From Vermamoeba vermiformis (Eukaryota): a DNA stretch of 64,000 nucleotides. The notes under the pieces are model-generated. The model worked only from the letters and a program-made list of their open reading frames with translations, did no database searches and was not told the DNA's origin. Below are positions 1,383-55,400 of this stretch, in pieces. The stretch's first letter is position 1. Each line of letters opens with the position of its first letter. The DNA is taken from the NCBI GenBank assembly GCA_045837725.1, contig JBEWZL010000049.1, forward strand, positions 62,001-126,000. Direction: 5' to 3'. Both the position numbers and the translations under genes were made by a program.

Positions 1383-3088
1383 TTAACGCTTGACCCATTG
1401 GAAGGCACGACGAGCCTTTCTGCGACCAGGCTTCTTTCTTTCAACTTCACGTGCATCTCTAGTCAAGTAGTTGCCGAGCTTCAATGGTGGGTAAAGTTCT
1501 GGGTCTACGTTCAACAAAGCACGAGCAATAGCAAGGCGAATAGCGCCAGCTTGGCCTGATGGACCACCGCCTGAAGCAGTGATTTCGAGGTCGTATGTGT
1601 TCAGTCGCTCAGTGACCATCAAAGGTTGAATCATGTGATCACGCACGTAAGGCAGCTAACACCAAAAATATCAGCAAATGTTCGCAAAAATTGATTATTG
1701 GCAACAGATCGTGGATCCGTTGACGAGTGCCAAAAGCCATTAACAATACTTACAGGGAAATAATACATCCAGTGTTTACCGTTAATAGTAATATTGCCGG
1801 TACCCTTCTTTAAGTGCACCTATGCAATACAACATGTGAGTTCAATGCGCGAAAGTGCGAGAGCTGCAGATCCGGTGACAAAAAAATAAAATTGTTTTCA
1901 GGAGGTTTATGCTCTGATCACTGATAATCATAAATTAAGCCTCCTAATTTCATCATTAAACAATTTTATCGCCCCACGCGTGCGCGCAGGCAATAGAATG
2001 TAACGTAAAGTATGAGATCCAAAACGTGTTTTGTTCGTACTCATGTAACGAACACGCAACTATTGTGGGACTAAAGTCCCTGCCTTTAACATCTACTTGC
2101 GGCCTATTTAACAATCGCACCATAGAATATTGATTTTAGGTGTAAAATGGTAGTAAACATGACGTTTTTTGACAGTGGATCCAGCAACAGATCCTCATGT
2201 CAGAACGTCAATTCCAAATATGAGGCTTCTTGATTATATACTAGTAGATGCTGCAAATATATATGTCGCGCTTTCATTAACTTAAATTCTTGTAGTATTG
2301 TATAATTGTCATAAAAAGTGCGTGTTCATCGACATGTTTGACAACCTCTGGATCTCTTAGAAATAATCATATGATAACCTTACCTTAGCAGTAGCGCGCT
2401 TCCTTCGGCCAATAGCGATAGTGCTACCATCTTCATAAACTCGAACTGGGCGAGGAGCTGGCGGGACTGGTGAATTCCATACAGCACCAGCGGACGGCAA
2501 TTCAAAAGCTGGAGGTTGAGCAGCCGCATCTTCTCCCCTATAATATACATTACTATTGTATCGATTATGTAGGATATTGAGGCTTTTGAAACTGATCCAG
2601 AGTGAAATCTGGATTTGTTAGTGGATCGATTATTTTGCCTCTAAAAAACCAATACTCATTATAAAATTAAAATAATTACCTAGGGACTACTTTTTCGTCT
2701 TCTTCAGCCTCAGGAATGAATGTAACCTTCATACAATAATTATTCAAATATTCTACATCCAATAATTTTATTTTGCGTGCAAAAATTCATTTAATAGCTA
2801 AATAATGCGCATTATTACCTTCTTCACTGGCGGTGCTTTTTTAATTCCGTAATTAAAATCTTTGAAAACGTCCTGCTTCAATTGTGTCCAGTCATATGAA
2901 TCTTCTTTTGTCAGAACGTTGGGATCGCGTCCGGTTTGATAAATAGATGATGTGTGATAATTATTTTTGGCTGAATTAATAGATCCAAAAACACTCGTTG
3001 CCGCCCGTGTCTTCTGGACAGATGAGATCAACTGCCTCGAGGATCCGCAAGACAAGCTTGCAAATTGCTTAGATAATAACGAAAGCAT
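1383..3088 (-). CDS. MRPS9: Mitochondrial ribosomal protein uS9m
   Basis: Ser/Arg-rich N-terminal presequence (MLSLLSKQFASL...). S9 motifs GRRKRATAKV, GGGPSGQAGAIRLAIARAL and LTRDAREVERKKPGRRKARRAFQWVKR. About 5 exons. Confidence 0.93.
1885..1970 (-). ncRNA. Box C/D snoRNA-like fold-back element, copy 1 (in MRPS9 intron, sense to host)
   Basis: ATGATGA (box C) ... CTGA (box D), closed by a GATAAAATTGTTT/AAACAATTTTATT stem. 83 of 86 nt are identical to 25037-25122. Confidence 0.6.
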
Positions 3089-23245: not shown

Positions 23246-25928
23246 ATGTCGCACTTGAGCTCATTCAAGGCATCGACTAGAGACCCTGATGAGGTGTTTC
23301 GTCGGTTGAAAAAAGACCCTGAAAACAACGTAAGCGACATCCGAAAATTTCTTATTATTCCACCAGATCTGTCTAAAAAATATACAATAATATTAATACG
23401 GTATTAATTTATAGTATTGTGCTGAATGTGGAGCTAGCAATCCTCAATGGGCGTCAAGTAATTATTTTTCAAATAATAACAATTTCGTAATGCAATTCTA
23501 ACGGTTATATTGAATTATTACAGCGACCTATGGTATTTATATTTGCTTAAATTGCTCTGGAAAACATAGAAGCTTGGGAACTCATTTGAGGTAATTATTG
23601 GCAGTTGATCCATTTCGTTTTTCGTATTTTTTCAGATTTAATTGAAAAACTTCTTTTAGTACCGTAAGAAGTCTTAATATGGATAGTTGGACCGACACTC
23701 AATTAGCCTTGATGGAAGTAAGTTAATTCATGATTTATTCAAAAATATCAACGACAGATCTAGATCGGAAAACTCGAAAAAATTCATTAAAATCAAACCG
23801 ACGATTTAATAAATACTGTATATTAAAGTATATTATTTAGTACGGAGGAAACAAGAATTACAAAGCATTTATGACCTCTCAAGGCGTCAGCAGCTCAATG
23901 GATCTAACCTCAAAATACAATTTACCAGCAGCCATTATTTATCGCGAAAAATTAAAGACTATTAGTCAGGTAATTATTTCATACGATTTTTCTAGATATG
24001 AGGCAAAAAGGAAAGCTGATCTGCCTCGTCGAATTTCAATGCTTTGATTACAAATCTAAATTTCCTTTTAAGGGCAAAGAATGGTCCGAGCCTTCACCGG
24101 AACAAGTTAAAAAATTAATGAGCGGCAATCAAAGCTCGTCGTTGAGGACATCTTCGTCCAACGATTACAAACTGACTTCGGATGTGACCCCGCCTACACG
24201 ACGTACTGCTAATACTGGTTCTAGTGACTATGGGTACGTTACCATATTTAGAAATAATTTTTATTATTATAACGAAGCGCAATGGCACGTGCACGTGTCA
24301 AATTTTTTTTTTGCCGACCAGCAACTTCATTCACAATTTTTATTATATGCAGTATAGTATTATACTGTTGATATTAATATTCATGATCGTCTTAGTGGTC
24401 GCACCATGTCTAGCAGTGGTGGCTATGGTAACGGCGGCTACAACAATGGCGGCGGTTACAACAACAGCAGCTACAACAACAGCAGCTACAACAACGGCGG
24501 ATACAATGGCTCGAGTCAGAGTGGCGGCTACAACAGTTCAGGCTACAATAGCAGCGGAGGGTACAACACTGGTGGCAATTCTAGTGCCGGCAATGTGCCT
24601 CCTGGCGAGCGACGAGGTTTGCAACCCACGACCAACGACAAGTACAAAGTGAGCGTGTCCAGCGATGCTTATTTTGGCAACTCTCCGCAGCCTAAGAGAA
24701 ACACGTAAGTCGATACCGATCTAACGCTTTTCTGGCACGTGTCACAGACCGTGTTTTGAAGTGACACGTGTCAAATTGTATTGCCCGTCATTTCGTTGGC
24801 TGTTCGTTCTTTGTTTGACCAATATTATTTCTAGTAGTGGTCAATCAGATTTCCTCGAAAACAGCATGAATGCGTTGTTCACTGGCTGGAGCAAGTTGTC
24901 TTCGGGCGTTGAAAAACTCGCGCAAACTGCGAAACAAAAAGTTCACGAGCTTCAAATCGACGATAAATTCGAGGTATTTAGTTAACTATATGCTTATTAT
25001 AGTTAAATATAATGAAATCTACGGTGCCACATTGAAGATAAAATTGTTTAATGATGAAATTAGGAGGCTTAATTTATGACTGTCAGTGATCAGAGCATAA
25101 ACCTCCTGAAAACAATTTTATCAGTTTTAGTTTACGGCCGAGACCGACACCACATTACCATATTTGGAAAGTCTGTATTAATATACCGTGTCGCAGGAAT
25201 TGAAGCACAAGGGCATGAGTCTCATCAACTCGACTTTCAACAAGGACGCTCCTGTCCCAGGGTCACCACATCAAAGTCCTCATAGCCGTCATGGCCATGA
25301 TACAGATAGACAATATCACTACCGCGAAGAAGACAGTTCGCTGTTGGATCAGGATTCGCACTTGCATCACAATGAAGATCCGCGACAGCACCAACGAACT
25401 TATCAAAGCAATAGCAGACAAGACGATATTTGGGATAATTGGAGCAGCCAAGGTGCACAACAACAGATGTCTAACAATGGTCACGCTAGATCTGATCCCG
25501 AAAGAGATCAAGAAGATTTAGAAAACTTTTTCGCTAACGATAGCGGCCACAGACAACAAAATACTAAGAAAAATACTACAGTCACTCGCGTAGTCGATGA
25601 CTCTAATTTTATGGGCTTTGACGTCGAAGAAAGGCAACCTACTAAAACCGAATCCGTGAACAAGGAAGAAGATTCGTTCTGGGACGAGTTCGATAAGAAA
25701 GTTACAATGGCTGATAATAGCAAGAGCAGCAATGGTACTAAAGCATCGAATACTAAGCCTCAAGAAGATCTTTGGGACTTTTCTTCAACCGAAACAACAC
25801 CGAAAGAGCAACGCAAAGAGACCTCTGCGTCAGTTCAAAACGGCACTCAGACTGGCAAAGCAGCTGTCAAACAACAAGGCTGGGAAGAGAACTGGGACGA
25901 TTGGGGTGACTGGGAGAAGAAGAAATAG
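23246..25928 (+). CDS. ArfGAP1/Gcs1-like ARF GTPase-activating protein
   Basis: CAECGASNPQWAS...GIYICLNCSGKHRSLG, VRSLNMDSW, GGN motifs, an ALPS-like segment (LFTGWSKLSSG) and Trp/Asp-rich tail motifs. Confidence 0.9.
24410..24580 (+). repeat. Gly/Tyr/Asn/Ser low-complexity coding repeat (GGYN/SSYN)
   Basis: Tandem ggc/agc-tac-aac units such as tacaacaacagcagc within the ArfGAP exon 24396-24704. Confidence 0.8.
25037..25122 (+). ncRNA. Box C/D snoRNA-like fold-back element, copy 2 (in ArfGAP intron, sense to host)
   Basis: Perfect 13-bp terminal stem GATAAAATTGTTT/AAACAATTTTATC, box C at 25051-25057, box D at 25106-25109, candidate D' ATGA and C' GTGATCA. Confidence 0.6.
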
Positions 25929-26005
25929 GGTGTACGTTCAAATTGGAAAATTTTAGTAAACTTAGACTCTTATCAAAAGTCAACTGTTGTCCTTTTTACT
26001 TTGTA

Positions 26006-28193
26006 CTAGACTTTTGTTTGTGTTCTTCTTTTCTTTGTGGCAGGTTCATCAGGGTCGGTACTATCCTCTTCTCTAAGCTTTATCCCCTTTTGTCTGAACA
26101 CATTGCACACTGCTTCCACAATCAGTGGCTACATCAAATGTTAGCAAGATACAGTAAGTCATCTCTTTGTGACAAGTCTTACCTCTGAAATTACATAGTG
26201 AGATGTCCTGCTGTATTTGTGATCAAGTCCATTTGTATTGAAAGTAACTCCAACCAAGCCATCTGCAAACATTGTACTGCCTTCTGTAATGTCTTCCATA
26301 GTTTGCAAATAGTACTGTTTAACTAAATTAGCATAGGCATGCTTCAGTTTGTCAAAGGTGGCATTGATTTTTGTAGCAGGAGTGCACTGTGTACTAATGG
26401 CTTGGTCTAAAGTCTGGCTATTGCATTGAGTTAAATGACAGTACAGGTCATCAACTACTTTCATTAGAATTTCTTCATTGGATTTGCCAGGATTAGTTGA
26501 CTTTTTGTACTGTTCAAGCTGTGCAACAGTGGCCAAGCTAACAATGAATCCAACTCGACCTGTTGAACAGCATGAGCATAGATTGGAAAACAAGTGCCTA
26601 ATTTGTACCTTGTAACTTGTTCAAGATGTTCTGGATATGAGCATCAGATAACTTGACATCAAACAGGTGCTCAACAAGGGCACAACAATCCTCTTTTTTG
26701 GTTATGCATTTAAAGTTAGAATGTTTTTCTCTGCACTTTGTTTCACTGTTTGGCTTTGCAATGTTGGCTCCATCCAACTGTTCAAAGTAGATGATGTCCA
26801 GTGAAGTTCCAGCAACAATGCAGTTTCCATAGCCAACAAATTCTGATACAAGCCTCTGGTACAAGCTTTGATAAACTCCTTTGTGTGACTCAAACATTCC
26901 CTCAGCAATGTGCAGCAGTTCTTGAGCTTCATCACACAGCAAAAATAGAGTTGTCCTATTGAAATCAAGGAACACACTGGTGGTGTCAATAACTGTTTGA
27001 AGTTCTTCCACTGTTTTGAAAACGTTCTTAAGTATTGCTTGAATTGTTCTGCACATGTGTAGTTGTTTCTGATGTACTTGAGACAAAAGCAGTTGTTCAT
27101 TTGTAAGAGCTAGATTCTTCGTCTTCATGATCATTAACAGCACTAATTTGGTGGCAAGTAGCAAGCTGATCTCATACTCAGCTGCATAAATGTCAAAATG
27201 GCCTTTTGCACTCTCAAGTTCTTTAATATTCCTGATAAATATGCCCTCAAGTTCACCTACACAAGAAATTAGTTAGTTTTACCACCAGTAGTGATGCTCA
27301 AACTTGCCTTTTTTGAAGTCAAAATAGACTGACATGTGTTTCCTGCCAATGTCAAACAAAGCCTTAGTTTTGCCAGTGCCAGAAGTGCCAATCAGATAGT
27401 GCAAAGCTGGCCAATGTGAGTTACAGCCTTGCAGAATGTCTTTGACAATCTGTGACTCAGCATTTTCATTGCCTAAATCACCTTTCAACAAGTTCAATTT
27501 GATCTCAGTTGGAGATGTGCCAGGCAAAGGTCTAGTGATCAGGTCATTGTTGTGTATGGAGTATAGTTTGGGCTCTTCAATGTCACAGACTGAAATAGCA
27601 CCAATAAACCAACTGAGAACAGTCTGTGAAGGATGAAGTGGCGTGTTTGGTTTGATATCTGAATAATATAAGCCAAAGACATTAATAATGTTAACTTTGG
27701 TGGAATGATTTGGCTTACTTTTGCGTTCCCAGTCCTTAAACTCCAGCGAAAAATGTGGTACATAAGGCCACTGCAATAGATCGTGCTTCGATAGCTCTTC
27801 AAAAACGTCGTTAATTGGCTTGTACGAATGCAAACACGCGCGAAATGGGTCGAGTACGAGATCCAGGTGCGGTGGATTGGCTGCGAACAATTCTTTTGCG
27901 TTATTATAGTGGCTAAGGTCAACGCTTCTCTTTAATCAGCGTTAATACGTCTTAATAAAGGAGTCATCGTGACGTGCGTAAGTGGCTTCTGGGCGTCCTA
28001 ATGGCCAGCAGACCCATTGCACGAATTGTTGCATTGGTAAAGCCTCAATATCGGTTACTAAATTCGAGTTAATATTTAATATTAATGTCCGAACTATACT
28101 TACTCGTTAGCCATTGTTTACGGAAGTCTGCCGGCCCTAGAATTAATTATTAATTCAAATTGTTGCCAACAATCTTCGCTATTTACCGTCCAT
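26006..28193 (-). CDS. Crinkler(CR)-effector-like P-loop NTPase with SAM-like header, no C-terminal nuclease
   Basis: Walker A GTSGTGKT, Walker B LFLLCDEAQ, IVAGTSL, LQGRVGF, ISEPLIVEA and terminal NLS-like KKRR. About 7 exons, including one GC-AG intron. Confidence 0.65.
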
Positions 28194-28509
28194 TATATTA
28201 TTCAATGCTACTAATGAATAAAGGCAGTATGTTAAATTATTGTGTGCAGTGATGAGACGAATAGCTATCTTAGCTATGGTGCTCGTCTGTTGCAACGAGT
28301 GCAAATAATGCCGCTTTTTTTTTAGCTGAACAATAAGACGTCAGGACAACAAGGCAGTATTAATTCGCATATGGCGTAAAGCAGGTCACGTTCGTCATAT
28401 GTAGATACGTCAGACGGACATCCGTCACAACCGAGATCAACACGGGATGTGGCAATAACAACGGTAATCATCGTTATTTTTAACGTGAATATAATTATCA
28501 GATGTAATT

Positions 28510-29130
28510 TAATGGTGATAATGCGCCGAGATTTGAATTATTCCAAATTTAATTAAAGCAATGCTGATCGGCGTCCTTCCTTCGTTTGTAGCCTCAATAA
28601 CATGGCATCGATATCAAAATTAATATTTATAATGGATATATATTATATTAAGCGCCGATTTTACTAGAATAAAGTAATAATAAATTATAATTACCACCAG
28701 CTGCTTTTTACGACTGCGACTCTAATAAATACGTCAATAATTCGACAAATTAATTTTCTTATTGTTTGTCTACCAGGTTCTCGCGGATGTGCTTCTAAAC
28801 GTAAACAGAACGCGATCTGTTTTGATCCATCAAACACCACCTCGTCCTTCAGGCTGAAGTATTGATCCTTCTTACAGCCCTATGGTGTACGTTCTGTTGT
28901 ATTGAAAGCGCAATTCAGCGTACGTGGCTCCCAAAGAAATTTCGTAGGTACGCCTTATCTTACAAGTAGTTCTTGAAAATGAACAAACGTACACAATAGG
29001 ACCTCGTACGTCAAATCGTTTTGTTGTTGGCTTGTTTGATCGTCGTTCAAGTCCTCGGACAAGCAGTCAATGAAGAAATGGCTGAACTGTGAACTTGATG
29101 TCGACCAGTCGTTCAGCTAGATATCTCAAG
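28510..29130 (-). CDS. Possible small multi-exon hypothetical gene
   Basis: Open exon-like segments (LNDWSTSS...TYEVLL; AVRKDQYFSLKDEVVF...; YRCHVIEATNEGRTP...) with plausible splice sites. The model is not resolved. Confidence 0.3.
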
Positions 29131-29315
29131 TAAGTTACAAAATATTTCAATTGTGCAAACGACCTACAAAAGTAAGGGAAACATACCGTACGTGTAAGTT
29201 AGTAAAAATTGATTTTACGACAAATCAAATTTTCGGCGGCGAATTAATTGGATAAACCGAAATAGTTTCCTCCTTCTTTAAGCCTAATTTTAAGCCAATA
29301 ATTGAACTACATAGC

Positions 29316-30492
29316 ATGTCTTTCGAGGTATTGTAACTTTTTTTGCGCAACAGGCGAATTCAGATCGTTGACAGCAGTTTAAACTTACAACAAAATACGA
29401 TAATCAAACTATTTTTATGCCTATTTACGGTTTTGATATTAGCCTATATTCCTGCGAGAGGCAGATAAAACGCTGGATCCTGAGACTGAGGAATTGACTT
29501 TTCACGGTAAGAACTAAAATGTAATTTCCAAATTATTAATTTTAATCCAATATAGAGTCTCCTAGTAAGGCCACGCTCAAAGCTCTCGGCAAATTTTTAC
29601 AAAACCAGATGTGTCACTTGAGTGTACTCCACTTACGCAGCTCCAGCGTAAAAGACGATTTGACAATTATAGCTAGTAAAATCTCGAAAAATAACGAATC
29701 GTTGGATGTACTAGACCTCAGCGGAAGTGGTAAGATTAAACTTTCAACCAAGATCTGACACCAATCCTTTTGTTAGGAAACATGCTTTATCCACGTAGCT
29801 TAGAAAGTTTCGTCAAGCGGTGTACTCAATTAGCGGAGCTTAATTTGAGCGGTAAGCGGCTTTCTATTCAATTGAATCAAGGGAGGAAATTCCGGCTTTG
29901 GGGATCCCCAAAAATTATTCAATAATAACGAATTATTTAGGCAATGATTTGACCGAATTCTGGAACGCATCTTCGACAACCTTACCAATAGTCTCACGCT
30001 TTACTCGATTGAGTTTAAACAGTACGTTTAGTTGCCTACGATCCGCTACTTGATCCTAACCGAACCTCTGACTAGACTGCAAGAATTTAGCCAATTGCTT
30101 TCAAGTACTTTCAAAATGTTCGCAGCTTCAAAGTTTAGAAATGGAAGGTACGTTAATTAACAAGTGCCAAGCCAGTATTAATATCGTAAATAGATAATTC
30201 AATTCGCAACGCTGAATATAATTCCGTGCTCGATTTTGTTCGAACAAATACCACACTTACTCATCTAAATATTAGAGGTAAAGACTTGGCAATCGTAATT
30301 GAATCATAGTAATTTTTTTGACCAGATAACCGCATCGAATTTTCGGATTCCGCGATTGACCTAATTAAACAAAATACAACGCTGACGGAGCTCGTTATCA
30401 CTTCAAAACGGTCTAAAAGTTCGAAAGCGAATATTGCCAGCGATTATTTCTCGGAACAACTGTTCAAAATTTTGAAAAGAAATAGGACTTAG
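29316..30492 (+). CDS. RI-like LRR protein (may continue into the coiled-coil ORF ending 30868)
   Basis: Roughly one LRR per exon: LDVLDLSG, LAELNLSGN, LQSLEMEDN, LTHLNIRDN, NTTLTEL. TAG at 30490-30492. Confidence 0.7.
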
Positions 30493-31646
30493 ATCTGCCC
30501 AGTTTTCATTCATACCTAGCGCTGCAGCTGAACTAGATATGCTAAGTACTAGTGCAAGTCCTATTAACAGTTGTGCCTCCCTGGACTTAAAAGAAAGTGA
30601 AGCAAATTCGAGGGAGTCGCCGTTACAATTTGGAGAACGAACGAAATTAGCGGCGGAAAACGAACAATTGAAGCTAGAATTAGAGCGTATCAAAAGAGAA
30701 AATATCATGCTCAAACAGGAAACAGCCGTCATAGCGCCATTAATCCAGCAAGTCAAAGATCTCAAAGAAGAATTGTCGCGCTCGTCACAAAAGCTGCTCG
30801 AGTTGGAAAAAAGTCACAAAATAGTTCAAAATCAGTTTAATAACCAACTGCACAAAGTCACAAATTAGTCAAAATGAGTGTTTGACGAAAGTTTGACCAA
30901 TTGTAAACGTTTTTGTTGTTTCGTTACCTAAGATTAAATTTAAATCGAAACCCTCAGCGTGCATCAAAGCAGTAATGATATCCTATAACGTCGATTTCTT
31001 ATGTCGAAGATGAGCAACGGTAAGAGTAGATCTTTAAGTTGGTGCGCAAGTTTACGTATCAAAAAATCTCGTAAACTAAGAATCTCTTTGAATAAAATTT
31101 CAATTATTTATAAGGCTCGTAGCTTAATTTTGAGATTAAAGTAGTAATGAAATTCGATGAATTTTATATTTTAATTGAAAATTATTTTATTAATTCTGCA
31201 ATAGGAACTCCGACGCTGTCTGCCGATATAAACATTATTGAATCTGATTTTAAGAACGCAGAAAATATTATTGCCGCTCTATCAATAAGCAACGCGGATC
31301 TGAGTGCGTGTCCTGTTTGCAAGTCTTTAGCACCCAAAAAGAACGACCATTATTATTGTCCAATATGCAACGAGGTCAGTATTATCACATTTCCTATTAT
31401 TCGAACATTTAAATAATACTGTCATGAAGAATTCGTCAGTAAAATCGTTGGAAGTGAAGGTACTTTACGCTGAAGATGATTCGATTATTAAATGGCTCGG
31501 ACAATTCTTAGAAAATAATGGAATATTAAATGATCTGGCGCTAACGTGGCAATCTTCAACGGAAGATCCACAACTGACGAACATTTTCTCAGCTGGGTTG
31601 AGATCTTGCTGCAACTTGACAAAACTATCGATATGTGACATGACAG

Positions 31647-31893
31647 TGTCATAGATCCATGACTTTAATTAATCTCTACTCCTCGCTGGTTGCACGACTC
31701 CTTGGTGCTCTACTCCTTGGTGTTGGCTCTCCGCGTGGCTTGGTCAATCCGCCTGGATTATTCCGCTCTTTAACCTAATATGGAAATACGTATAAAATAT
31801 AAATATCTTGTACTTACGCTATTCACTCGGTTCAATAAATACAATACATACGAACACAGCTCTTTAAATCACTTATTTATTTGTTCTATTACA
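31647..31893 (+). repeat. 5' LTR
   Basis: TGTCATAGA...TCTATTACA imperfect terminal inverted repeat, identical to 37429-37675. Contains three ACTCCT units, a TATA-like TATAAA and AATAAA. Confidence 0.97.
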
Positions 31894-31895
31894 TT

Positions 31896-31906
31896 TGGCG
31901 ACACCT
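31896..31906 (+). promoter_or_regulatory. Primer-binding site TGGCGACACCT
   Basis: TGG begins 2 nt after the 5' LTR. It is complementary to a tRNA ending ...AGGTGTCG-CCA; the isoacceptor is not determined. Confidence 0.75.
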
Positions 31907-31933
31907 ACTCAACGAATCTGCATCTCATCCGTT

Positions 31934-33478
31934 ATGGCCGACGACATCTCTGCAGCTGCTAATGAAGCTATCCGTACTAGACATGGACTCAACTCTAGAC
32001 GCAAGAGTGGTATGGATTTATTTGTTGAACCCCAGAGATCCAAGATCGGTTCTCGATCCGAAATCTCTGATACCCCCGAAAAGCCGGAGGAAAGTTTCCA
32101 ATATGGAGACGCCTCTGACGAAGAGCAATTTGACCTGGACGACTTAACTGTGAATCAAGTCGTAACCGAACTGGAAAAATCTGCTCCGAGGGTCACTTTG
32201 ACCAATGACGCTGGACGCGGCAAGGCTCCTATCGCTGCCGCGAACAACAACAACGGTCAAGGCCGACAAGCTGTCGCTGCTGGTGGTGGTGACGGTGGGG
32301 ATGGTGACGACGACGCTGATGACAGCGACGACGAACACCACGATGCTGAAGGCAACAATCCTCCGCCCAACCCCAACGGTGGTGCTCCTAATCCCGGCGC
32401 TCCTGGTGGCAATCCCAACAACGGTGCTCCTGGTGGCAATGGCGCGCCTGGCAACAATCTCCCTGGTGGTGGCAATGAAGAATTGGTCGTCTCTTTCCAA
32501 CGCTTCGTCAATGTCATCACTGAGCGATTTGACTTGGAAAATCGCAACCAACGACGTCAGCAAGAGCGCGAAGCCAAGAAATTGCAAAAGTTTTCGATTC
32601 CTGGTGACATTCTCGTATTCAAAGGCGAGGAGTGGGATCCCGAAAGTCCTACTAAGAAAATTGTTACCGTCGAAGACTACTTGGATCGAATTCATCGCTG
32701 CGCTTCAATGGGCAACTGGAACTCGAACCATGTTCGCTACGTACTCTTGGCAAAGCTTGAAGGTGCTGCGAAGGATCACATCGAATGTTTGGCTCCCGTT
32801 CATCGCTCAAGTGTCAAGAACATCGTCAAAGCTCTCGTTCTACGCTATGGTTCTTCACCCGAAGCTCAAGCCTATCATCTGCGCGAAGCCAGTACTAGTA
32901 AGCAACAACTTGGTGAGCGTGGCACTGCGTTCCTTGAGCGTGTGTTACCTCACTATCGAAGAGTGCAACTTGATGAGCGAACAAAGCTCACCATTCTTCG
33001 TGGCTCTTTGGCTTTTGAATACGCTGAAGAGATTCGCCGTCGGAAAATTACTTCCTTCGACGATGCGTTGATTACTATTGCTGACTTCGATCGCGCCCTG
33101 GATCAACATCGTGCTATCACTCGCATTCCTGCTCCTGCTACGAAGACTCCTGGCAACACTGTCAACGCTGTTCAATTCGACTCGCTCAACGCTGGTGTCA
33201 TGGACCAAGTCACTAAAAATCGCGACGAAATCAAACAAATCAACGACAAATTGGACTCAATCGCTGAAGCTCTTCGCACTGAGAACAAATCAAAGAAATG
33301 GTGCAAGTTTCACAAGACAACGAAGCATGACAACTCCGAGTGCTTCGCTCAGAAGAAAAACAAAAAGAAGAAATTCAACAAAAACGACAACAAATTAATC
33401 AAAAACCTTCAATCGTCAATCAATTCGATCGCTGAACAAATGAAGAAAATCAACGAAACCGAAATTGCAAAAAAATAA
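31934..33478 (+). CDS. gag: Gag
   Basis: ATG at 31934, G/N/P-rich spacer, capsid-like region (WNSNHVRYVLLAKLEGAAKD; KQQLGERGTAFLERV) and variant zinc knuckle WCKFHKTTKHDNSEC. Confidence 0.9.
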   Translation: MADDISAAANEAIRTRHGLNSRRKSGMDLFVEPQRSKIGSRSEISDTPEKPEESFQYGDASDEEQFDLDDLTVNQVVTELEKSAPRVTLTNDAGRGKAPIAAANNNNGQGRQAVAAGGGDGGDGDDDADDSDDEHHDAEGNNPPPNPNGGAPNPGAPGGNPNNGAPGGNGAPGNNLPGGGNEELVVSFQRFVNVITERFDLENRNQRRQQEREAKKLQKFSIPGDILVFKGEEWDPESPTKKIVTVEDYLDRIHRCASMGNWNSNHVRYVLLAKLEGAAKDHIECLAPVHRSSVKNIVKALVLRYGSSPEAQAYHLREASTSKQQLGERGTAFLERVLPHYRRVQLDERTKLTILRGSLAFEYAEEIRRRKITSFDDALITIADFDRALDQHRAITRIPAPATKTPGNTVNAVQFDSLNAGVMDQVTKNRDEIKQINDKLDSIAEALRTENKSKKWCKFHKTTKHDNSECFAQKKNKKKKFNKNDNKLIKNLQSSINSIAEQMKKINETEIAKK

Positions 33479-33513
33479 TGCACAGCACTGACGCAGGCTC
33501 TGTTAGTGTTGTG
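33469..33513 (+). promoter_or_regulatory. -1 programmed ribosomal frameshift signal (gag-pol)
   Basis: Slippery heptamer A AAA AAA, 5-nt spacer TAATG, then a 12-bp stem CACAGCACTGAC/GTTAGTGTTGTG. Pol is in the -1 frame. Confidence 0.75.
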
Positions 33514-36500
33514 GCATCAATCAACAAAGAGTCTACAACTAAATCTACGTCCGAAACCGAAAAGAAGGCCCGCGCTACTCCGTGCTACGCTCCTGCTATC
33601 TTGAATGGAAAAGAAGTCCTCGTCATGATCGACACTGGCGCCTCTGCAACACTTATCAACTCTCCAATGGCCATTAACATCTTGGGTAAAGGCTTTAAAA
33701 TGAAGCCTTACAATGACGGTCCTCTCGCCGGCGTCACAAATCAATCACTGAAAATTCTCGGAGTTACTCCAATCGAATTGACGTTTGCCGGCCTTCGGGT
33801 CACTCGTCAATTTGTCATCGCTGAAGGCCTTAATACTGATGTCATCTTTGGTAACGACACTCTTCTGGATCTGGAGCTCTCAGTCAGTTTCTACAAACGA
33901 CGCATCAAGTCTCGACATGGTAGAGTACCAATGACCTGTACAACCCAGGACGGACTGCTATTCCAACGGCAACGTCTTGCTTGTCCAGTGGATCTAGAAT
34001 TGCCGCCTAGATCTGGTACGCACTTCGGTGTGAACGTCAATGTGGCTCCGGGTACTACTATCACTTTCGCGCCGAACGAAGAAGTGCTTCAGGAGACCAG
34101 CATACGCGTAGCTGGCACTCTTGATATCGTATCAACTGACGGATTAATTATGGTCAACGTGGTGAATCCAACAATTTTTCCGATCACGTTAGAGAAAGGA
34201 AGAATACTCGGATCCGTCGAACCCATATTGCAATACGACTTCATCAATAATATTCAAGAACAAGCAAAAGATAAGCAACTTAAGGAATTAACGGAAGAAG
34301 AATTTCTCGCGCAATTCGACTTCGATCTCGATCTAACTGCGCAGCAGATCGAAGAGTTGAAACAAATACTTCTGGATTTTCGCGACAGATTTATCAACAA
34401 AATAGAACGCATAGAAGGTCTACAAACAAACGTCTATCACTCCATCATCACAAATCCAAACGAGATCGTGCAAAAACAACCTTACTCTTATGGCCCTGCT
34501 CAACGCGCAATTATCGACAAAGAAATCGACGAAATGGAAGCTGCTGGTATTATTCAACGCTCCTCTTCACCCTGGGCATCGCCTGTCGTACTCGTCAAAA
34601 AGAAGGATGGATCTACTCGTTTCTGCATCGACTATCGCGCTCTCAACAAAATCACTCGACGTGATATGTATCCGCTTCCACGCCTGGATCACACTATTGA
34701 TTCGCTGGTGGGAAATTACTATTTTTCGACAATGGATTGCGTCTCCGGTTATTGGCAAATTTTAATGAACCCGCTGGATGTGCCCAAAACTGCTTTCGTC
34801 ACTCACCGTGGTCTTCACGAATTCAAAGTAATGCCTTTTGGTTTGGTCAACGCCCCTATGACTTTTCAACGCTCAATGGATATGATTCTAAGTGGTTTGA
34901 AGTACGAGATCTGCCTCGTTTATTTGGACGATATTATTGTCTTTGGTAAAACTTGGGAAGAACACTGCGTTAATTTGCGAACGGTTCTCACCCGTTTGCG
35001 CGACGCTGGTATTTATCTCAAGCCGAAGAAATGTCACTTTGCGAAAAAATCAATCACTTTTCTTGGACACGTCATCTCGTCAGAAGGTGCTGCCGCAACT
35101 CCCGACAAAATCAAGGCCGTTCAACAGTTCCCGACGCCTCAGAACCCCGATGACGTTCGCTCATACCTTGGCTTGGTTGGTTTTTATCGACACTTCATCA
35201 AAAACATGGCTGAAATCGCACAACCGCTCAACGCGCTACTGAAAGAAAATATAACTTGGAAATGGACAGAAGTCGAAGACAACGCGTTCAACAAACTCAA
35301 AGAAGCGCTTACTACCGCTCCCGTGCTTGGCTTACCCGATTATTCTCAGAATTTCATCCTCACTACTGATGCTTCGAACAAAGGTATTGGTGGCATCTTA
35401 TCGCAATTCCAGAATGGCAAAGAACGCGTAATTGGCTACTATTCGCGCAAGCTCAACAGCGCCGAAAAGAATTACCCTATCACGGAAAAAGAAGCTCTCG
35501 CTATGGTCAAGTCTATTCAACACTTTCGCCCGTATCTCTATGGTCGACGTTTCACGCTTGTCACGGATCATCAAGCCCTGGTCTATCTGCATTCGAACAA
35601 GGCTCCCACTGGTCGCTTAGCAAGATGGCAAAATTCGCTTATGGATTACGACTTTGACGTAATATACCGCCGTGGTTCCCAAAATGGTAATGCGGATGCA
35701 CTCTCCAGATATCCGCTCTCGACAATTTCCTCAGTTACGCAACAAGCTTTTTGGACAAAAGAAGAAATGGAGAAAGCACAACAGAACGACGAATCGATAA
35801 GTTTCCTCTACGACTATTTTCTACATGGAGATCTACCAAAAGACAATCTCAAACGATTTATCGCGCTTACTCATCGCAACGAATTCTTAATAGACAATGG
35901 ACTTCTCTATCGACTCCGCCATAATCAATTTATTCAAGAAACAACTCGACAACTGGTGGTCCCGAAGGAATTTCGCAAGCAAGTTTTGGATCAAGCTCAC
36001 AGCTCGCCTCTCGCCGCGCACTTTGGATTCAACAAGACTTACTACCGCCTACGTGAACACTTCTACTGGCCCAACATGATGCGAGACACGAACGAATATA
36101 TTTCCGCCTGTGCCTCGTGTGGTGCTCGTAAAATTACTCCGCTCAAGCCGATCGGCGATCTGCAGTCGTACGATCCGCGAGAGCCATTCGACATCATCTC
36201 AATCGACTTGGTTGGTCCTCTCCCGAAGACTAAAAATGGCTACAAATACATTCTGGTTATTCAAGACTTATTTAGCAAGTGGGTGGAAGCGTTTCCGCTT
36301 AAATCGAAGAAATCTCACTACATCGCGTCAAGACTCATCAAGGACATCGTCTGCCGGTTTGGTTCCCCTCGACAAATCCTCTCTGATCGCGGTACGGAAT
36401 TTCTGAATCAGATCGTCGCAGAAATTTGCAAAGTTATTGGATCAGTTAAAATTTTCACTGCTCCTTATCACCCGCAAGCTGATGGACAGGTCGAACGCTT

Positions 36501-37416
36501 CAACAAAACGCTTCAAGATGGTCTCTATCACTACGTCAACGATAACTCCGACAATTGGGACGAATTTATTCCGCACGTGCTCTTCGCCTACAGAATAACG
36601 GCTCAGACTTCAACGAAAGTATCGCCCTTCGAAATACTCTTTGGAAGAATCGCTCGCACTCCGCTCCTCAACGGAATTATTGACCCATCACGCGATCTAC
36701 ATCTCGACATGTCAAGTTACGTCGCTGAGATCTCTGCCAGATTTCTACAAGCCTACGAACTCGTCAAGGACAACATCACCAACTCACAATCACGCATGGC
36801 CTACTACTACAACATGAATCGACGCGACTACGAATTTAAAGTTGGCGACTACGTGTGGCATCGAAATTTCACCGCTGGAAAACTCGAAGAGAAATGGTTT
36901 GGCCCGTATATCATCACGAAGAAACTCTCGGATCTCAACTACAAGATTCAAGACCCTGCTCGTAAGAAGAAAGCTAAAGTGGTTAACGTCAATCAGATCA
37001 AACTCTTCACTTCTCGTTTCGAAATGGACCCTGACGCCCGCGACAAAGAAGAAGAAAAGAACAACGCTACGCCTATCAACAAGCCCGTCACTCCCAAAGT
37101 AACGAAAGAAGATTCTCCGTCTGAAATTTCTCCGCCTGCTCGATCCAACGATCAACTCACTCAACTTGGTTTACTACTACTTCAACTTCGCCGTACTTTC
37201 GAAGACACTCTCAACTATGGCATCACTGCTATCAAACGACAACTCTCGGAATTACTCTGCGTCGGATCAATTTACATCAAGTCATCGCGCCTCAACGAAA
37301 AGTTTAAACGTCAACTCTCTCAGCTCAAGACTCGCCCCGACATCCTGCTTTTCCTACAACGCATCACGTCAAACTTCAACACGGAATTTCAAGAAGAACT
37401 GCAACGCTCGTCTTAA
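33478..37416 (+). CDS. pol: Pol polyprotein (protease, RT, RNase H, integrase)
   Basis: IDTGA protease, SPWASPVVLV...YLDD RT, TDAS...TDH RNase H, HHCC plus D-D-35-E integrase and GPY motif. Confidence 0.98.
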   Translation: MHSTDAGSVSVVASINKESTTKSTSETEKKARATPCYAPAILNGKEVLVMIDTGASATLINSPMAINILGKGFKMKPYNDGPLAGVTNQSLKILGVTPIELTFAGLRVTRQFVIAEGLNTDVIFGNDTLLDLELSVSFYKRRIKSRHGRVPMTCTTQDGLLFQRQRLACPVDLELPPRSGTHFGVNVNVAPGTTITFAPNEEVLQETSIRVAGTLDIVSTDGLIMVNVVNPTIFPITLEKGRILGSVEPILQYDFINNIQEQAKDKQLKELTEEEFLAQFDFDLDLTAQQIEELKQILLDFRDRFINKIERIEGLQTNVYHSIITNPNEIVQKQPYSYGPAQRAIIDKEIDEMEAAGIIQRSSSPWASPVVLVKKKDGSTRFCIDYRALNKITRRDMYPLPRLDHTIDSLVGNYYFSTMDCVSGYWQILMNPLDVPKTAFVTHRGLHEFKVMPFGLVNAPMTFQRSMDMILSGLKYEICLVYLDDIIVFGKTWEEHCVNLRTVLTRLRDAGIYLKPKKCHFAKKSITFLGHVISSEGAAATPDKIKAVQQFPTPQNPDDVRSYLGLVGFYRHFIKNMAEIAQPLNALLKENITWKWTEVEDNAFNKLKEALTTAPVLGLPDYSQNFILTTDASNKGIGGILSQFQNGKERVIGYYSRKLNSAEKNYPITEKEALAMVKSIQHFRPYLYGRRFTLVTDHQALVYLHSNKAPTGRLARWQNSLMDYDFDVIYRRGSQNGNADALSRYPLSTISSVTQQAFWTKEEMEKAQQNDESISFLYDYFLHGDLPKDNLKRFIALTHRNEFLIDNGLLYRLRHNQFIQETTRQLVVPKEFRKQVLDQAHSSPLAAHFGFNKTYYRLREHFYWPNMMRDTNEYISACASCGARKITPLKPIGDLQSYDPREPFDIISIDLVGPLPKTKNGYKYILVIQDLFSKWVEAFPLKSKKSHYIASRLIKDIVCRFGSPRQILSDRGTEFLNQIVAEICKVIGSVKIFTAPYHPQADGQVERFNKTLQDGLYHYVNDNSDNWDEFIPHVLFAYRITAQTSTKVSPFEILFGRIARTPLLNGIIDPSRDLHLDMSSYVAEISARFLQAYELVKDNITNSQSRMAYYYNMNRRDYEFKVGDYVWHRNFTAGKLEEKWFGPYIITKKLSDLNYKIQDPARKKKAKVVNVNQIKLFTSRFEMDPDARDKEEEKNNATPINKPVTPKVTKEDSPSEISPPARSNDQLTQLGLLLLQLRRTFEDTLNYGITAIKRQLSELLCVGSIYIKSSRLNEKFKRQLSQLKTRPDILLFLQRITSNFNTEFQEELQRSS

Positions 37417-37428
37417 AGGGGAGGGAAG
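37415..37428 (+). promoter_or_regulatory. Polypurine tract
   Basis: AAAGGGGAGGGAAG abuts the 3' LTR. Confidence 0.9.
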
Positions 37429-37675
37429 TGTCATAGATCCATGACTTTAATTAATCTCTACTCCTCGCTGGTTGCACGACTCCTTGGTGCTCTACTCCTT
37501 GGTGTTGGCTCTCCGCGTGGCTTGGTCAATCCGCCTGGATTATTCCGCTCTTTAACCTAATATGGAAATACGTATAAAATATAAATATCTTGTACTTACG
37601 CTATTCACTCGGTTCAATAAATACAATACATACGAACACAGCTCTTTAAATCACTTATTTATTTGTTCTATTACA
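37429..37675 (+). repeat. 3' LTR
   Basis: Identical to the 5' LTR by visual comparison. Confidence 0.97.
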
Positions 37676-39122
37676 ACAGTAGTAAAAGGGGCTGGTCAAT
37701 TATTTGGAGAAGCTATTCGATCGCTAATCAACTTGCAATCGCTGTATTTTACTCGGGTGAAGGTGCATCCGGATGAAGTTCAGTATTTATCAGATGGCTT
37801 GAAAGCAAACAAATCGATTCAAAAACTCATGTTATATGACTGTGCTGAATCGTGGTGCATATTGAACGGCTTTTTCGAAGAAAACAAATCTATACAAGTG
37901 CTGTCATTTTCCGAACATTCACCTGGAATTTCCACGATCAACAATTCACTCGATGGATTAAAATATACTAAGACATTGAAAGAGTTGCATATAGACTCCG
38001 ATTATCCATTCAATCGGACAGCTATAACAAGTTTGGCGGAAGGTCTTAGATCCAACAGTTCGATAACTAGCTTGCACCTCGTAGCCAAGATCAATAATGA
38101 AGTGTTAGAAATATTATGTGATGCATTGAAAGATAATAAGATTGTTCGGACATTGAATCTGGCGGGCAATGAATACACATCCGTTCCTGCAACAATTTTC
38201 CAGATCAGCTCGTTAACGGACCTGATGTTAGGAGAACCAGAGCACCCGATCTCAGAGGGATTTACAAAAGAATTCGGCGAGGCGCTACGACGCAATAAAA
38301 GCCTTAAAAGGCTATCTTTGCAAGTCTCATCGAACGACGGATGCAGAGCAATAGCAGACGGACTGAAAGGAAATGATACGCTATATCAACTAATATTATT
38401 ATTGCATAATGTGGATGACGCATCTATTCGGTATTATGGTTCAGTTTTGGAGACACATCCGAGTATCGAGAATCTTATGACTGGTGACTATGCCTGTCAA
38501 GGCTCTATAATTGGAACGATGGTTGATATTATTAAGAAAAATACTAAATTGGAATGCATTGCAGTGATTGGCCAGTACAACGACAATATCGACAGGTTCG
38601 TGGATGCACTCAAAGAAAATAACACGTTAAAATCCCTTGAAGTAAGCATAACCGATGATATGCCCCTGATTATATACCGCGAAGAACAATTTATACCCTT
38701 ATTTGAAGTCAATTATTCCTTGATCCATTTGGGCTTTTTCGGCGCTCCTGTTGAAAAATACTTAATGCGGAATAGAATCTTTCAGCAAGAAATGTACGAG
38801 AATACTATGGTTGTGATACATAGTATAGCACGAGATTCGTCGATGATAGCTTTGATCCCGCCTGAGATCTGGATCAACGTGTTTAAGTACTTACGTTATC
38901 CTGGCTTAAAGTCATTCGAATCTATTGCACGCAAAATATTTGACAAATACAAATAAATAAATTGTCGAAAGGATGTAGTACTCGATCACCGAAAATGTTC
39001 TTCTTCCAGATCGATTTCCAGGATCGAAGTATCCGCGAGGGTTTACCTGTTAGTAGATTCGCAGCGTAACGGACAAGTGTCTTCTAAACTTTCGTTTATT
39101 ATGCAAATGAATACTAGTCCTA

Positions 39123-40908
39123 TTAGATTTTGTTCTAAAAGTACGTGTTAGTACTACGAGTGTTGATAGTATCATTACAATAACGTTACCTTCTTAACCT
39201 CTCTTCGCTTCAACTTAGCCTCGAGTTTTCTTTGTTGCTCAGGAGTCATGTTCTCCATGCGCTTCTCTAACTTTTCTTTTTCAGCACGTTCTTTCTCAAG
39301 TCTTCGTTGTTGAGCAGCCTAGATCCAGCGTCAAAAAGTCTGAGCAGAGAACAATTATACTGGCTTGTCTTACCTCCTCGCGTTGTTGGCGAGTCTCTTT
39401 CAAGCTCTTTTGGACGATCTTCTGTCTCTTTTGCGTGGCAGCTTGTTTAGCCTAAGTCGAACATGAGCACATCCACGGATCTGAAGTGGGCCAGCAGACT
39501 TACTCTATCGGACAACTTGGTTCTGCCAATCAAATCAACCAAGAAGAAAATCATCTTGAAGATAGTGACGTGTCGGCCCATATCGCTCAATGGCGGCATT
39601 CGCAACACAAATCGCAAAATCTTCGGGCTGTAATTGGCGCGTTGAGCATCTACATCATAATCATGTAAACACCGGCTACTTACTACTTGGGGTCCACGGC
39701 GAACTGGTCAGTGAAGTGCACGAAGACGATGTCCTTGTCGAATGATTGGAGGGTCTTGGCGACGTCTCCGGTCAAAATAGTCGAGACCATTTCACTGCAG
39801 TCAGACAACAACACTTTGCCCTTAGGGACTGCTTCGTGATTAACGGTAGTGGCCAAGGATTCCTACAATACAAATAGTAAGTCATAAGACAGAAGGTAGG
39901 TGCGAGGGACCGTACCAAGTCAGGGTACTCCTTTTGGTATTGACGCTTCTCGTTCTTGGGCACGAGCGCAAAGACGAAGGGCTCCATGGCATCGTCGTTC
40001 ATAGGAATGTCAATAATAACCTCGTCTTGAGATCTGCTGACAATGCTGTACAAGCCACTCAACAAGTCGTGACGTTTGTGCATCTAGGCAAGGTGGTCAA
40101 TCACGGGCCATAAAGCTTCATTATTAGACATACCTTGAGGGTGAATTGAGCACCAATGCAGTTAGCTCGACCAGTGCAGTGAGCAACAAAGCGTGCTTGA
40201 CTTTCTTTGACCAACAAAGTGTTAGCGGCCTCGCCAACTTTGCTGAATTGTTCTTCGAGGGTGGCACGATAAGTCTTAGCCCTGCAATGTTATTGATATT
40301 AGCACACCTCGTCTTCGTAGAATATCGATTTACTCACCAAGCGAGAGCATAAGCTTCGTTTTGGTTCTTGCCAACAAACGAGTACATGATGTAAACTACG
40401 ACGAAGGCAACAATGCCGATCTCCATGTAATAATTTGATGGGCCTTTAGACTCATTTAGGAGCACATCATCTAATAAAATACTATTAATACAAATATGGC
40501 ATTAATTTTTGCCTGGCAGGTCACGTACTAATAGGGATCTCAGGTTTGACAGGTGCAGATGGCTTCGTGGGCTTTTGTTTTACTTCCTCAACACCAACAA
40601 ACTCGTCATCGTCATATTCATCATCCTCCTATTTTTTAGAAATTTTTGTAAGGACACGGCTCGTTATACAAGCGAAAACAAGTTGATCCAAAAAAATTTT
40701 TGTTCTCGGTAGTGCTATTTTACTGCTGTATTACCTCCGCCGATCTCTTGGACAAAACTGTATAAATCAAGATATTAATTACCGATACGAATCAATGCTA
40801 ATCCGATCCCTCGTTGGTGACGTGGATTGGTTACTTACCCGGAGTGAATGCTGAAGCAAGCACAACAAATATAACAAAAATAGACAATAGTTTCGTTGTT
40901 GTCTTCAT
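39123..40908 (-). CDS. CCDC47: CCDC47 / PAT complex subunit (DUF1682)
   Basis: Signal peptide, acidic lumenal part, TM helix followed by GKNQNEAYALAW, CTGRANC, KRHDLL, VHFTDQ motifs and a basic coiled-coil end. Confidence 0.85.
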
Positions 40909-52447: not shown

Positions 52448-55400
52448 TTATTGTTTCTGTTTTTTGTTCGGTCGCTTGTCAGATGTGCCATTTGACTCTT
52501 GTTTTCTCTTCACACCAGTAACGCCATTAGTCTGTTGTTGCGGCTTCTTATTGTCCTTGGCAACTTGAGGCTTAGCAGTCTCTTTAGGAGGTTGAGGCTT
52601 GGTAGGGGCTTGAGCCTTAGGTGCCTCTTCTGTGGATCCAGCAGGCTTTTTCTTTTCGGCTGGTTTTTCTTTGTTATTAACAGCGGTAGTCTTGTTATTG
52701 TTATTGACTTGTTGGCCCTCCTTCTTATCGCCCTTTTCTTTCTTATCCTTCTTTTCTTTCTTGTTATTATTTTCTTTGGGCATCTCGGTGATGGTTCTAC
52801 AGCATCGAGTTAGACAGGTGTCACTTTGCTACACGCCACTACTTACCCTTCACTGATCATGCTCTTCAGCTGGTGAGCGGTCATCAGAACAGCTTGCTTG
52901 CGATCGTATTCAGGGCTCGCTACGGCGGTGTCAATGGCGGCAACCAAACTCTTCCAGTCGCCAAGGGTCTTGTGCAACTAATAGGAATTGACTATTAGTA
53001 CGTGCAAGTATAGATACCGAGCAACGGTAGTACGTACAGTATTAACATCAAAGTTGGCAACAAAGGCCCTCAATAAGCTCGTGGTGCACTTGTTCATGTC
53101 GGCAAATTCAGCGCGTGAAGGCTTCTTTTCTTTCTTAGTAATAGCTGCTTTGTATCCAGCAATCCAATCGGGAACAATACTCTTCAGCTTGTCCTTGTGG
53201 TCAGAGACTGATTTGTTCTTGAGCATTTGCACGAGAGGTTGCATGCACTTGAGTTCTGACGAATTTTTCACGGCAGCAGCAACGATGTCTGCCAAGGCCC
53301 AACCGAGATCAGGATTATTATACAAGAATGGCTATATAACAATATCATTAGCACGAACACATTTGATACTCATCGTATTGAACTTACGCCGTAGAAATCA
53401 GGGGTCAATGTCGTGTTCTTCTTGTTGGCAAGAACACTGAAAGCATTAGTGAAGGTCTGTCGGGCAAACGGGAGGTCCAAAGCACCGAGCTAACGTCATA
53501 TTAATATATGGCAACTACGATAATGTGAGCTACTTACGGGCTTCTTGTCGGACTTATTAATGTGAGTCAACACCTTGATAATGAAGGCAACACCGGCACG
53601 TGACAAGTCAATGATGTGACGGATGTTAGACTTCAAGCCAATGTTCAACAACGAGTCCAAAATAGTCTTCAACTCTTCAATGTCGTTGCCGCTCTCAGCA
53701 GGCTTGGCGGCCTTGACGACGCGGTTGTAGATGTTCGTGCAAGTCTTGAGGAAGTCCTTCAAGTTCTCTTTCTTCTTCAAGCCGTCCTTGACAATGGTCA
53801 ACAAGGGCGTCAACAATTTGTACACGAGTGGTGATTGCACGGTGTTGCTGTGAATCATTTTCTTCACGTAAGCGTCCAACAACGACAAGACACGAATACG
53901 GAAGTGAGTGAGTTGGTTTTCTTGATCTAAGCAGATATTAATAAGGTTGATAGTTAGAAGTATTAAGTCGTACCTTTGCGCTTCTTTTTCAATTCTTTTC
54001 GTTCAGCGAACATCTTGCTCAAGGCCTCATCCATCTTGAACATTTCATCGTCGTCAGCGGGAGGCAAGTCTTCCATTTCTTCGTCGGAATCTTCTTTTTC
54101 TTCCTTGGCTTTCTTGCCCTTCTTGCCCTCTTGTTTCTTGTCGTCCTTCATCTTGACGTCCTCTTTCTCTTCGCTGGACTCTTCGTCCTCGTCTTCCTCG
54201 TCATCATCCTCGTCATCGTCGTCATCTTCCTCTTCGTCATCATCGCCCTCTTTGTTCATGAACTTCTCTTGGAACTCGTCTAACTCCATGGCCTCGTCCT
54301 CTTCATCGTCATCCTCGTTGACATCTTCAACATCAATGACACTCTCAGGGTCCTCAACGGCAGACAAGAGAATGCCAATGCACTCAGCGGACCAATCAGC
54401 GATGAATGACACGAAGACTTGGCTGACAATCTCACGCAACAAGTGCGACTCCTTCACCAGCATGCCAACAAGCACGTCAGTAAGAACTTCTAAGGGACCA
54501 GCTTCTTCGTCGTGATCGTGCTCTTCGTCGCCGTGATCGTGTTTCTTGGCCTTCTTGGGAGTCTTTTCCTTCTTAGCCTTCTTGGGCGAGGCCTCGAAGA
54601 TCTTTTGCAAGCACATTTCGATTTCGGGAACGAGATCTGCAGTCTCTTCAGGCACGTTGTTGAACTCCAACAAGACGAAGATGACCAACGATTCAAATGC
54701 ACGAAGTCGTCGGACTTTAACGTCGTTGTTGTCGCCCTTGCTAGCTTGATCACGCTGCAAAAAAGATCAAGTCAGAATGACTGAACAGTAAAGAACAAAA
54801 AATGATGTTATGAGTTGAATTAGCCTTCAGAAACTCAGTACGATGTGAAACTCTCAAAGGAATCAAGTCACAGTGGATCATCATTGGCTAATTGTTTCAA
54901 CGCATTACTTTGCACTATTTCTACTCACCATTTTACGGATCTTCTCCAAGAGAGCAAGGCCGGCACTGTAGGCCTCCTTGGCTTCGTCGTCTTGGATAGC
55001 TTGTTTGCGAGTGAATTGACCGGAGTTATCCAATTGAGCTTGGAACTTGACCAGCACATCACCCCAGAACTCACCGCTCTTCATCAAGTTGACGCCGTCA
55101 ATAGTTTTGTTGCCATTAACGACCTCCTCTTCAGAGCTAGGTTCATCGTCTCCTTCATCACCGTTCTTTTCTTTGCCTTCACTTGACTTTTTGCCTGTAC
55201 ATCGATGTTAGATCCAGTCAAATAAAATTTTGGGACGGCTTATTACGTACTTGTCTTAGCAGCCTTGTACAAGAAGTCCAACAACGAGAACAAACGCTCT
55301 TTGCAGCTGTTTCTCATGCGAGCGCTCAGTTCAGGTTGCAATTTAACGGACAACTTCGACAGTACTTCATCTTCCTTCTTAGGCGTGCCTTTGCTCTTGC

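Follow-up and report, generated by a model that had tools for sequence, protein, structure and literature searches.

The window (the whole stretch of 64,000 nt of DNA that was analyzed) contains two copies of an 86-nt element in introns of two unrelated genes, and we interpret them as two paralogous genes for one box C/D snoRNA, which would be processed from its host introns and would derive from an old duplication, with both copies held by selection; we assign to this interpretation a probability of roughly 0.85. The copies represent a new, unclassified, and so far orphan family of box C/D snoRNAs with two intronic paralogues, ordinary in kind. Read from its 5' end, the element is composed of a 13-nt stem strand, A, AUGAUGA, 18 nt, AUGA, 6 nt, GUGAUCA, 13 nt, CUGA, and a second 13-nt stem strand. 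The features, in coordinates of the window, are the following:

25037..25122, plus strand: snoRNA copy A, the full element with its 13-bp terminal stem (covariance model 114 bits; orthologue L072:1977-2064)
1885..1970, minus strand: snoRNA copy B, 83/86 identical to copy A (covariance model 111 bits; orthologue L067:813-899)
25037..25049, plus strand: 5' strand of the terminal stem, pairing with 25110-25122 (predicted fold and four-sequence alignment)
25051..25057, plus strand: box C, AUGAUGA (by reading; unchanged in 4/4 sequences, i.e., two copies and two orthologues)
25058..25075, plus strand: region upstream of D', candidate antisense element, with AGGAGG and UUUAUG inside (reading and fold)
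25076..25079, plus strand: weak D' box, AUGA (by reading and from the snoZ196 and SNORD29 Rfam alignments)
25086..25092, plus strand: weak C' box, GUGAUCA (reading and Rfam alignments; unchanged in 4/4)
25093..25105, plus strand: region upstream of box D, candidate antisense element (alignment with the relative)
25106..25109, plus strand: box D, CUGA (reading; unchanged in 4/4)
25110..25122, plus strand: 3' strand of the terminal stem (predicted fold and four-sequence alignment)
24974..25196, plus strand: host intron of copy A, 223 nt, in a gene with an ArfGap domain (spliced contigs of runs X1 and X3)
1820..2383, minus strand: probable host intron of copy B, 564 nt, in a mitoribosomal S9 gene (from the reading frame, the GT/AG ends, and the alignment with the relative)

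The alignment of copy A with copy B returned the match at 83 of 86 positions and the unrelated flanks that had been reported in a preliminary description of this DNA, the three differences being C/T at 25080, G/A at 25082, and C/T at 25122. In the repeat search of the window, the two copies emerged as an inverted pair (85 nt, 98%, 23,066 nt apart), and the other long repeats consisted of low-complexity coding repeats and a pair of 249-nt LTRs only. The similarity between the copies stops exactly where the terminal stem ends. The 13-bp terminal stem, box C, and box D described earlier are present in both copies; moreover, both orthologues likewise have box C (RUGAUGA) close to their 5' end and box D (CUGA) close to their 3' end, and the stem directly flanks these two boxes. 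The internal boxes are weak (D' AUGA and C' GUGAUCA, 6 nt apart). With the boxes assigned by reading and from the Rfam alignments, positions 25080 and 25082 fall between AUGA and GUGAUCA, in agreement with the earlier placement of two of the three differences in the D'-C' spacer.

A covariance model built from four sequences (the two copies of the window and their two orthologues) retrieved only the two copies over the 64 kb, the next match having 12.7 bits and an E value of 3.6. A scan of the same 64 kb for RUGAUGA...CUGA with a terminal stem returned three good candidates, namely, the two copies and positions 54818-54893 on the minus strand. The latter is a second, unrelated box C/D candidate, with AUGAUGA, CUGA, an 8-bp terminal stem, and no Rfam match, located 5' of an exon (53963-54766) that encodes a DNA_pol_phi domain, and probably in an intron of that gene; it presents complementarities of 10 to 15 bp, several of them including G-U pairs, to conserved segments of the small- and large-subunit rRNAs of a plant-like rDNA.

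An Infernal/Rfam search, proposed in the preliminary description, gave no match in the window at the gathering thresholds. When the search was made permissive (E values up to 5 to 10), only generic C/D models were retrieved, all below threshold and on the sense strand, the best scoring being snoZ196/R39/R59 (RF00134; 26.4 bits against a gathering threshold of 55), snoR25 (RF01600; 27.8 against 50), and SNORD29 (RF00070; 21.1 against 48). These three models align with the element at boxes C and D, at the D'/C' positions, and along the stem, but the guide sequences differ and the element is not a member of any of them. Since the guide sequences differ, the alignments provide no evidence of a shared target.

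The element shares with the intron-encoded box C/D snoRNAs of animals and fungi the terminal stem at the boxes, the occurrence of one sense snoRNA per intron, the placement 64 to 80 nt before the 3' splice site, and the existence of several near-identical paralogues in different introns. Different from them, it features a 13-bp stem and mutually pairing guide regions, no target, rRNA or snRNA, has been found for it in the sequences scanned, and neither of its hosts, which encode a mitoribosomal protein and an Arf GTPase activator, belongs in the usual sense to the translation or nucleolar genes. The terminal stem of a C/D RNA usually comprises 4 to 6 bp, and the 13 bp of the element are much longer. 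By description, and not by sequence, the element can also be likened to the OR RNAs of Dictyostelium discoideum, nine orphans among the 47 C/D RNAs reported in PMC8817022, which likewise have good boxes and no assignable rRNA methylation site and which are expressed. According to the same account, all but one of the 47 Dictyostelium C/D genes are intergenic and 25 of the 47 have a predicted terminal stem; different from the OR RNAs as described there, both of our copies are intronic and have a very long stem. In mammals, 30 to 50% of the C/D RNAs are orphans, as reported in PMC8162545. Overall, the unusual details of the element (the 13-bp stem, the paired guides, and the changes shared between paralogues) leave it within a known kind.

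Both copies are sense to their hosts, the ArfGap and S9 genes, as previously claimed. For copy A, 24971 is joined to 25195 (GT..AG, cut +2) in contigs of runs X1 and X3, which belong to two different studies, and three upstream exons (23415-23726) match the Pfam ArfGap profile at consecutive profile positions, with E values of 9e-4, 3e-7, and 2.5e-4. Copy B is flanked by an exon ending with GRRKRATAK and an exon starting with VHLKKGTGNITING, and a Ribosomal_S9 domain (E value of 1.5e-31) is present in the last exon of its host. The unusual length attributed to the host introns was borne out, since they measure 223 and 564 nt versus 129 and about 98 nt for the neighbors that could be delimited. 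The RNA-type contigs of X1, X3, and X15 span the spliced exons and not the intron, and assembled contigs cannot reveal a small RNA. Copy A ends 74 nt and copy B 65 nt before the 3' splice site, and the corresponding distances in a diverged relative are 80 nt (A) and 64 nt (B). Intron-processed C/D snoRNAs have been described to lie upstream of the 3' splice site at a distance that is conserved (PMC8162545), and the spacing of 64 to 80 nt in all four copies is, judging from the sequence, their usual place. In the S9 intron we could also notice two blocks of 17 to 19 nt on the minus strand (2176-2194 and 2059-2075) that are identical in the relative, the intron being otherwise 44% identical. One of these blocks is a small hairpin (GGAUC...GAUCC), and in a search for a second RNA in this intron the conserved blocks yielded no H/ACA-like consensus fold.

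The diverged relative was identified by using 20 nt of the element (25060-25079) to scan a metagenome collection, which recovered eight loci, two of them, both from one sample, with the whole element. The remaining six matches are without boxes or stem, resemble bacterial contexts of ribosome-binding site and start codon, and were dropped. As determined by BLAST, one of the two contigs (L072) is collinear with the ArfGap locus, with 73% identity over 2,776 nt, and the other (L067) with the S9 locus, with 75 to 77% identity. The relative, represented by one metagenome and about 73 to 77% identical across the loci, thus has the element in the same two introns, which measure 230 nt (A) and 586 nt (B) in its genome, and it follows that the duplication had occurred before the two lineages separated.

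Between the window and the relative, the exons are 73 to 76% identical and the intron flanks 44 to 58%. In particular, at the copy A locus the identical positions amount to 84/88 in the element, 350/480 in the exons, 83/143 in the intron flank, and 58/140 in the neighboring intron, while at the copy B locus they amount to 81/87 in the element, 519/687 in the exons, and 228/519 in the intron flank. The binomial probability of such an identity of the element at the exon rate is 4e-8 for A and 2e-5 for B, and it is 9e-6 (64/68) and 1e-3 (61/67), respectively, when the 20 columns of the search pattern are removed; indeed, because the pattern spans 25060-25079, the invariance of 25058-25075 in the relative is mostly forced. 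The element is, on these alignments, the most constrained sequence at both loci, and it is under strong purifying selection. Among the variable columns, two group by species (G>A and an additional A, located upstream of box D and shared by the relative's two copies), one groups by locus (the final stem base), and the rest are private to one copy. At most, the species-wise changes hint at gene conversion across the core, or at a parallel change or coevolution with a target.

The comparison with the relative also brought out features of the surrounding DNA. In L072, a match to 39186-39986 of the window follows the ArfGap gene after about 380 nt, and from this spacing it follows that, relative to L072:2848-3226, the window has about 13 kb extra (approximately 26000-39186), which include a gene on the minus strand (26159-27272) and an LTR retrotransposon of the Ty3/gypsy type (31645-37675). 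The latter features direct repeats of 249 nt (31645-31893 and 37427-37675) that are 100% identical and an open pol frame of 1,326 residues with protease, reverse transcriptase, RNase H, and integrase domains, which suggests a recent insertion. Elsewhere, 59485-60396 on the plus strand encodes the domain of the histone-mRNA stem-loop binding protein (SLBP_RNA_bind, E value of 2e-32), a protein that to our knowledge is absent from most fungi and plants, which would be consistent with a eukaryote that is early branching or falls outside these groups. A Vms1-like protein of 604 residues encoded in the window has an 87% match in a metagenome, the best named matches being 31 to 36% identical (dictyostelid amoebae and chytrid fungi).

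The antisense target of the element was sought in rRNAs that stand in for those of the organism itself and were retrieved through the ITS4 primer site from contaminated bacterial assemblies. They comprise 62 partial eukaryotic loci in the vicinity of the large-subunit rRNA 5' end, together with one plant-like set (L065) with the small-subunit rRNA, the 5.8S rRNA, and a 2,259-nt 5' part and a 1,172-nt 3' part of the large-subunit rRNA, separated by a gap. The eukaryotic ITS4 site, which had no matches in viral contigs, is present in at least 62 contigs that are assigned to bacterial or archaeal assemblies (L001 to L062), and a contig of 8,971 nt in a gut metagenome-assembled genome holds a plant-like rDNA unit; the ITS4-bearing contigs are contamination of public prokaryote assemblies.

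A guide of this class would have at least 10 nt, upstream of D or D', that pair with an rRNA or snRNA according to the fifth-nucleotide rule. The preliminary description had recognized no rRNA target, and in the plant-like set and the 62 partial rDNAs we likewise found none that is convincing, as both anchored and free complementarity scans gave no match better than those of shuffled guides. The best match of the D' element consists of 10 bp with positions 42-51 of the small-subunit rRNA, near its 5' end, and is equaled by 59 of 200 shuffled guides; these positions are not methylated in Table 1 of PMC8817022, which covers the Dictyostelium sites and their yeast, human, and Arabidopsis counterparts only. 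For the D element, no run of at least 9 bp with at most one mismatch occurs in the same two sets. The presence of an extra base inside the D element in both of the relative's copies speaks against a long duplex being conserved in that region. When segments complementary to the inner region were sought in the window, only runs at the level of chance emerged. Ten bases of the D' region that have the same sense as the small-subunit rRNA were set aside, as about one such occurrence is expected by chance on a rough estimate.

The pairing of the would-be guides with each other, claimed in the preliminary description, is part of the minimum-energy fold, where AGGAGG pairs with CCUCCU and UUUAUG with CAUAAA, and it is preserved in the relative. 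The full element folds at -25 kcal/mol (z score of -5.6), and none of 200 shuffles was as good, while the inner 52 nt alone, with a z score of -2.7 and 4 of 200 shuffles as good, are moderately above chance. In the relative, the inner fold is retained (-14.5 kcal/mol, z score of -3.2) despite the extra A, and it survives because this base sits exactly between the two inner helices. The minimum-energy fold also pairs box D with UUAG, an arrangement that competes with the kink-turn. Over the four sequences the columns of the terminal stem are 98% paired; 11 of its 13 pairs never vary, and the other 2 vary on one side only. The relative keeps the stem with one A>G change giving a G-U pair and, in L072, with one bulge and one mismatch. 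Since no pair has changes on both sides in the four sequences, covariation neither supports nor contradicts the fold.

If the copies are genes for an intron-processed box C/D snoRNA, as we favor, the spliced intron of the expressed protein-coding host would be debranched and then trimmed by exonucleases down to the C/D particle, which would form on the C/D kink-turn and the long terminal stem with Snu13, Nop56, Nop58, and fibrillarin and would leave an RNA of about 86 nt or slightly less. The position 64 to 80 nt upstream of the 3' splice site would fit an assembly coupled to splicing. The data demonstrate how the element is built, the intron around copy A, the placement at orthologous sites, and the degree of conservation; we infer that the snoRNA is expressed, processed, bound by its protein partners, and active. 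A conventional snoRNP activity seems most likely, either as a guide of 2'-O-methylation through the element upstream of D' or as a folding helper, and the target may be an RNA or an rRNA segment absent from the sequences tested. In Dictyostelium, as reported in PMC8817022, the D' element is often the one used. The inter-guide helix could hold the weak C'/D' motif together and would have to open for pairing with the target.

It is possible to hypothesize that the conserved feature is the inter-guide helix itself and not an antisense guide. The RNA would then form a self-closed C/D particle that opens only on its substrate and serves as a folding helper or regulator or as a mimic of both strands of one rRNA helix, with the two genes, 23 kb apart, kept alike by gene conversion. 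We consider this unlikely, although not negligible; a literature search on concerted evolution of snoRNA paralogues and on self-pairing guide regions found nothing specific.

The possibility that the element is mobile was raised in the preliminary description, which spoke of an orphan C/D RNA family, dispersed or mobile, or of a snoRNA-derived MITE. The orphan C/D RNA part of that proposal stands, in view of the class features, the lack of an Rfam family above threshold, and the lack of an rRNA target among the sequences scanned, whereas the dispersed or mobile part and the MITE part do not, given the occupancy of the same introns in the relative, the absence of target-site duplications and A-tails, and the presence of only two copies in the 64 kb. 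In fact, target-site duplications, for which a check had been recommended, were not seen at the borders of any of the four copies when the flanks were read, and the copies have no A-tail, copy B being followed by a T run. Short length, near-identical copies, unrelated flanks, and inverted termini are traits that the element has in common with snoRTs and MITEs; it differs from them in the features just mentioned and in a conservation above that of the exons. Orthologous occupancy together with the lack of target-site duplications and A-tails rules out that the element inserted recently and leaves very little likelihood for a MITE or a recent retrocopy.

Accordingly, it is very improbable that one copy is a recently retroposed mature snoRNA, of the snoRT type proposed for mammals. 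Such an origin would agree with the similarity stopping exactly at the ends of the terminal stem, and it has been proposed in the literature that snoRNAs move by retroposition (Weber 2006 and Schmitz 2008, as cited in PMC13736004), but, besides the bare borders, both copies are already present in the relative, so that any retroposition is old and cannot explain the present near-identity. Still less probable is a C/D-capped hairpin, the main product of which would be a small regulatory RNA, or which would act in cis as an intron structure, and not a modification guide. A continuous pairing of the 3'-terminal 27 nt with the 5' half is possible (13+8+6 bp and two bulges), and both the inner helix maintained in the relative despite the indel and the failure to find a target in the plant-like set and the 62 rDNAs are in line with a hairpin; however, the inner helices, of 6+6 (at most 8+6) bp, are short substrates for a processing of the Dicer type, the occurrence of the element in two hosts that are unrelated speaks for a product acting in trans, and the box C/D anatomy and the intron position are those of ordinary snoRNAs.

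A closer relative, sampled in a DNA run (X8) about 97% like the window, contains both copy types and also a third variant with three changes (25089 G, 25093 T, and 25095 T), and its summed depth is 1311 to 2943 over the element versus 344 to 395 beside it (3 to 7 times), a figure that is not a copy number. A recent insertion of a MITE, possibly snoRNA derived, into two introns could draw on this depth and third variant, on the 13-bp inverted repeats at the termini, and on the near-identity of copies with unrelated flanks, but it is scarcely credible for an element that is found in the same pair of introns in a relative with about 25% divergence, is conserved above coding exons and shows no target-site duplication, has only two copies in the window and two true loci in the metagenome collection, lies sense at a similar placement before the 3' splice site in both cases, and has loose ends in X8 corresponding to the copy B flanks only.

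Reading the two copies as old paralogous genes for one intronic box C/D snoRNA, we conclude that short elements are not necessarily mobile when they occur nearly identical in unrelated introns, and that comparison with a single diverged relative turned a suspected transposon into a gene under strong selection. The present analysis adds a well-supported, unclassified box C/D snoRNA family to a kind of element that is well known, and, through its paired guides, 13-bp stem, and changes shared between paralogues, this family lends itself reasonably well to testing how the similarity of duplicated intronic snoRNAs is maintained.
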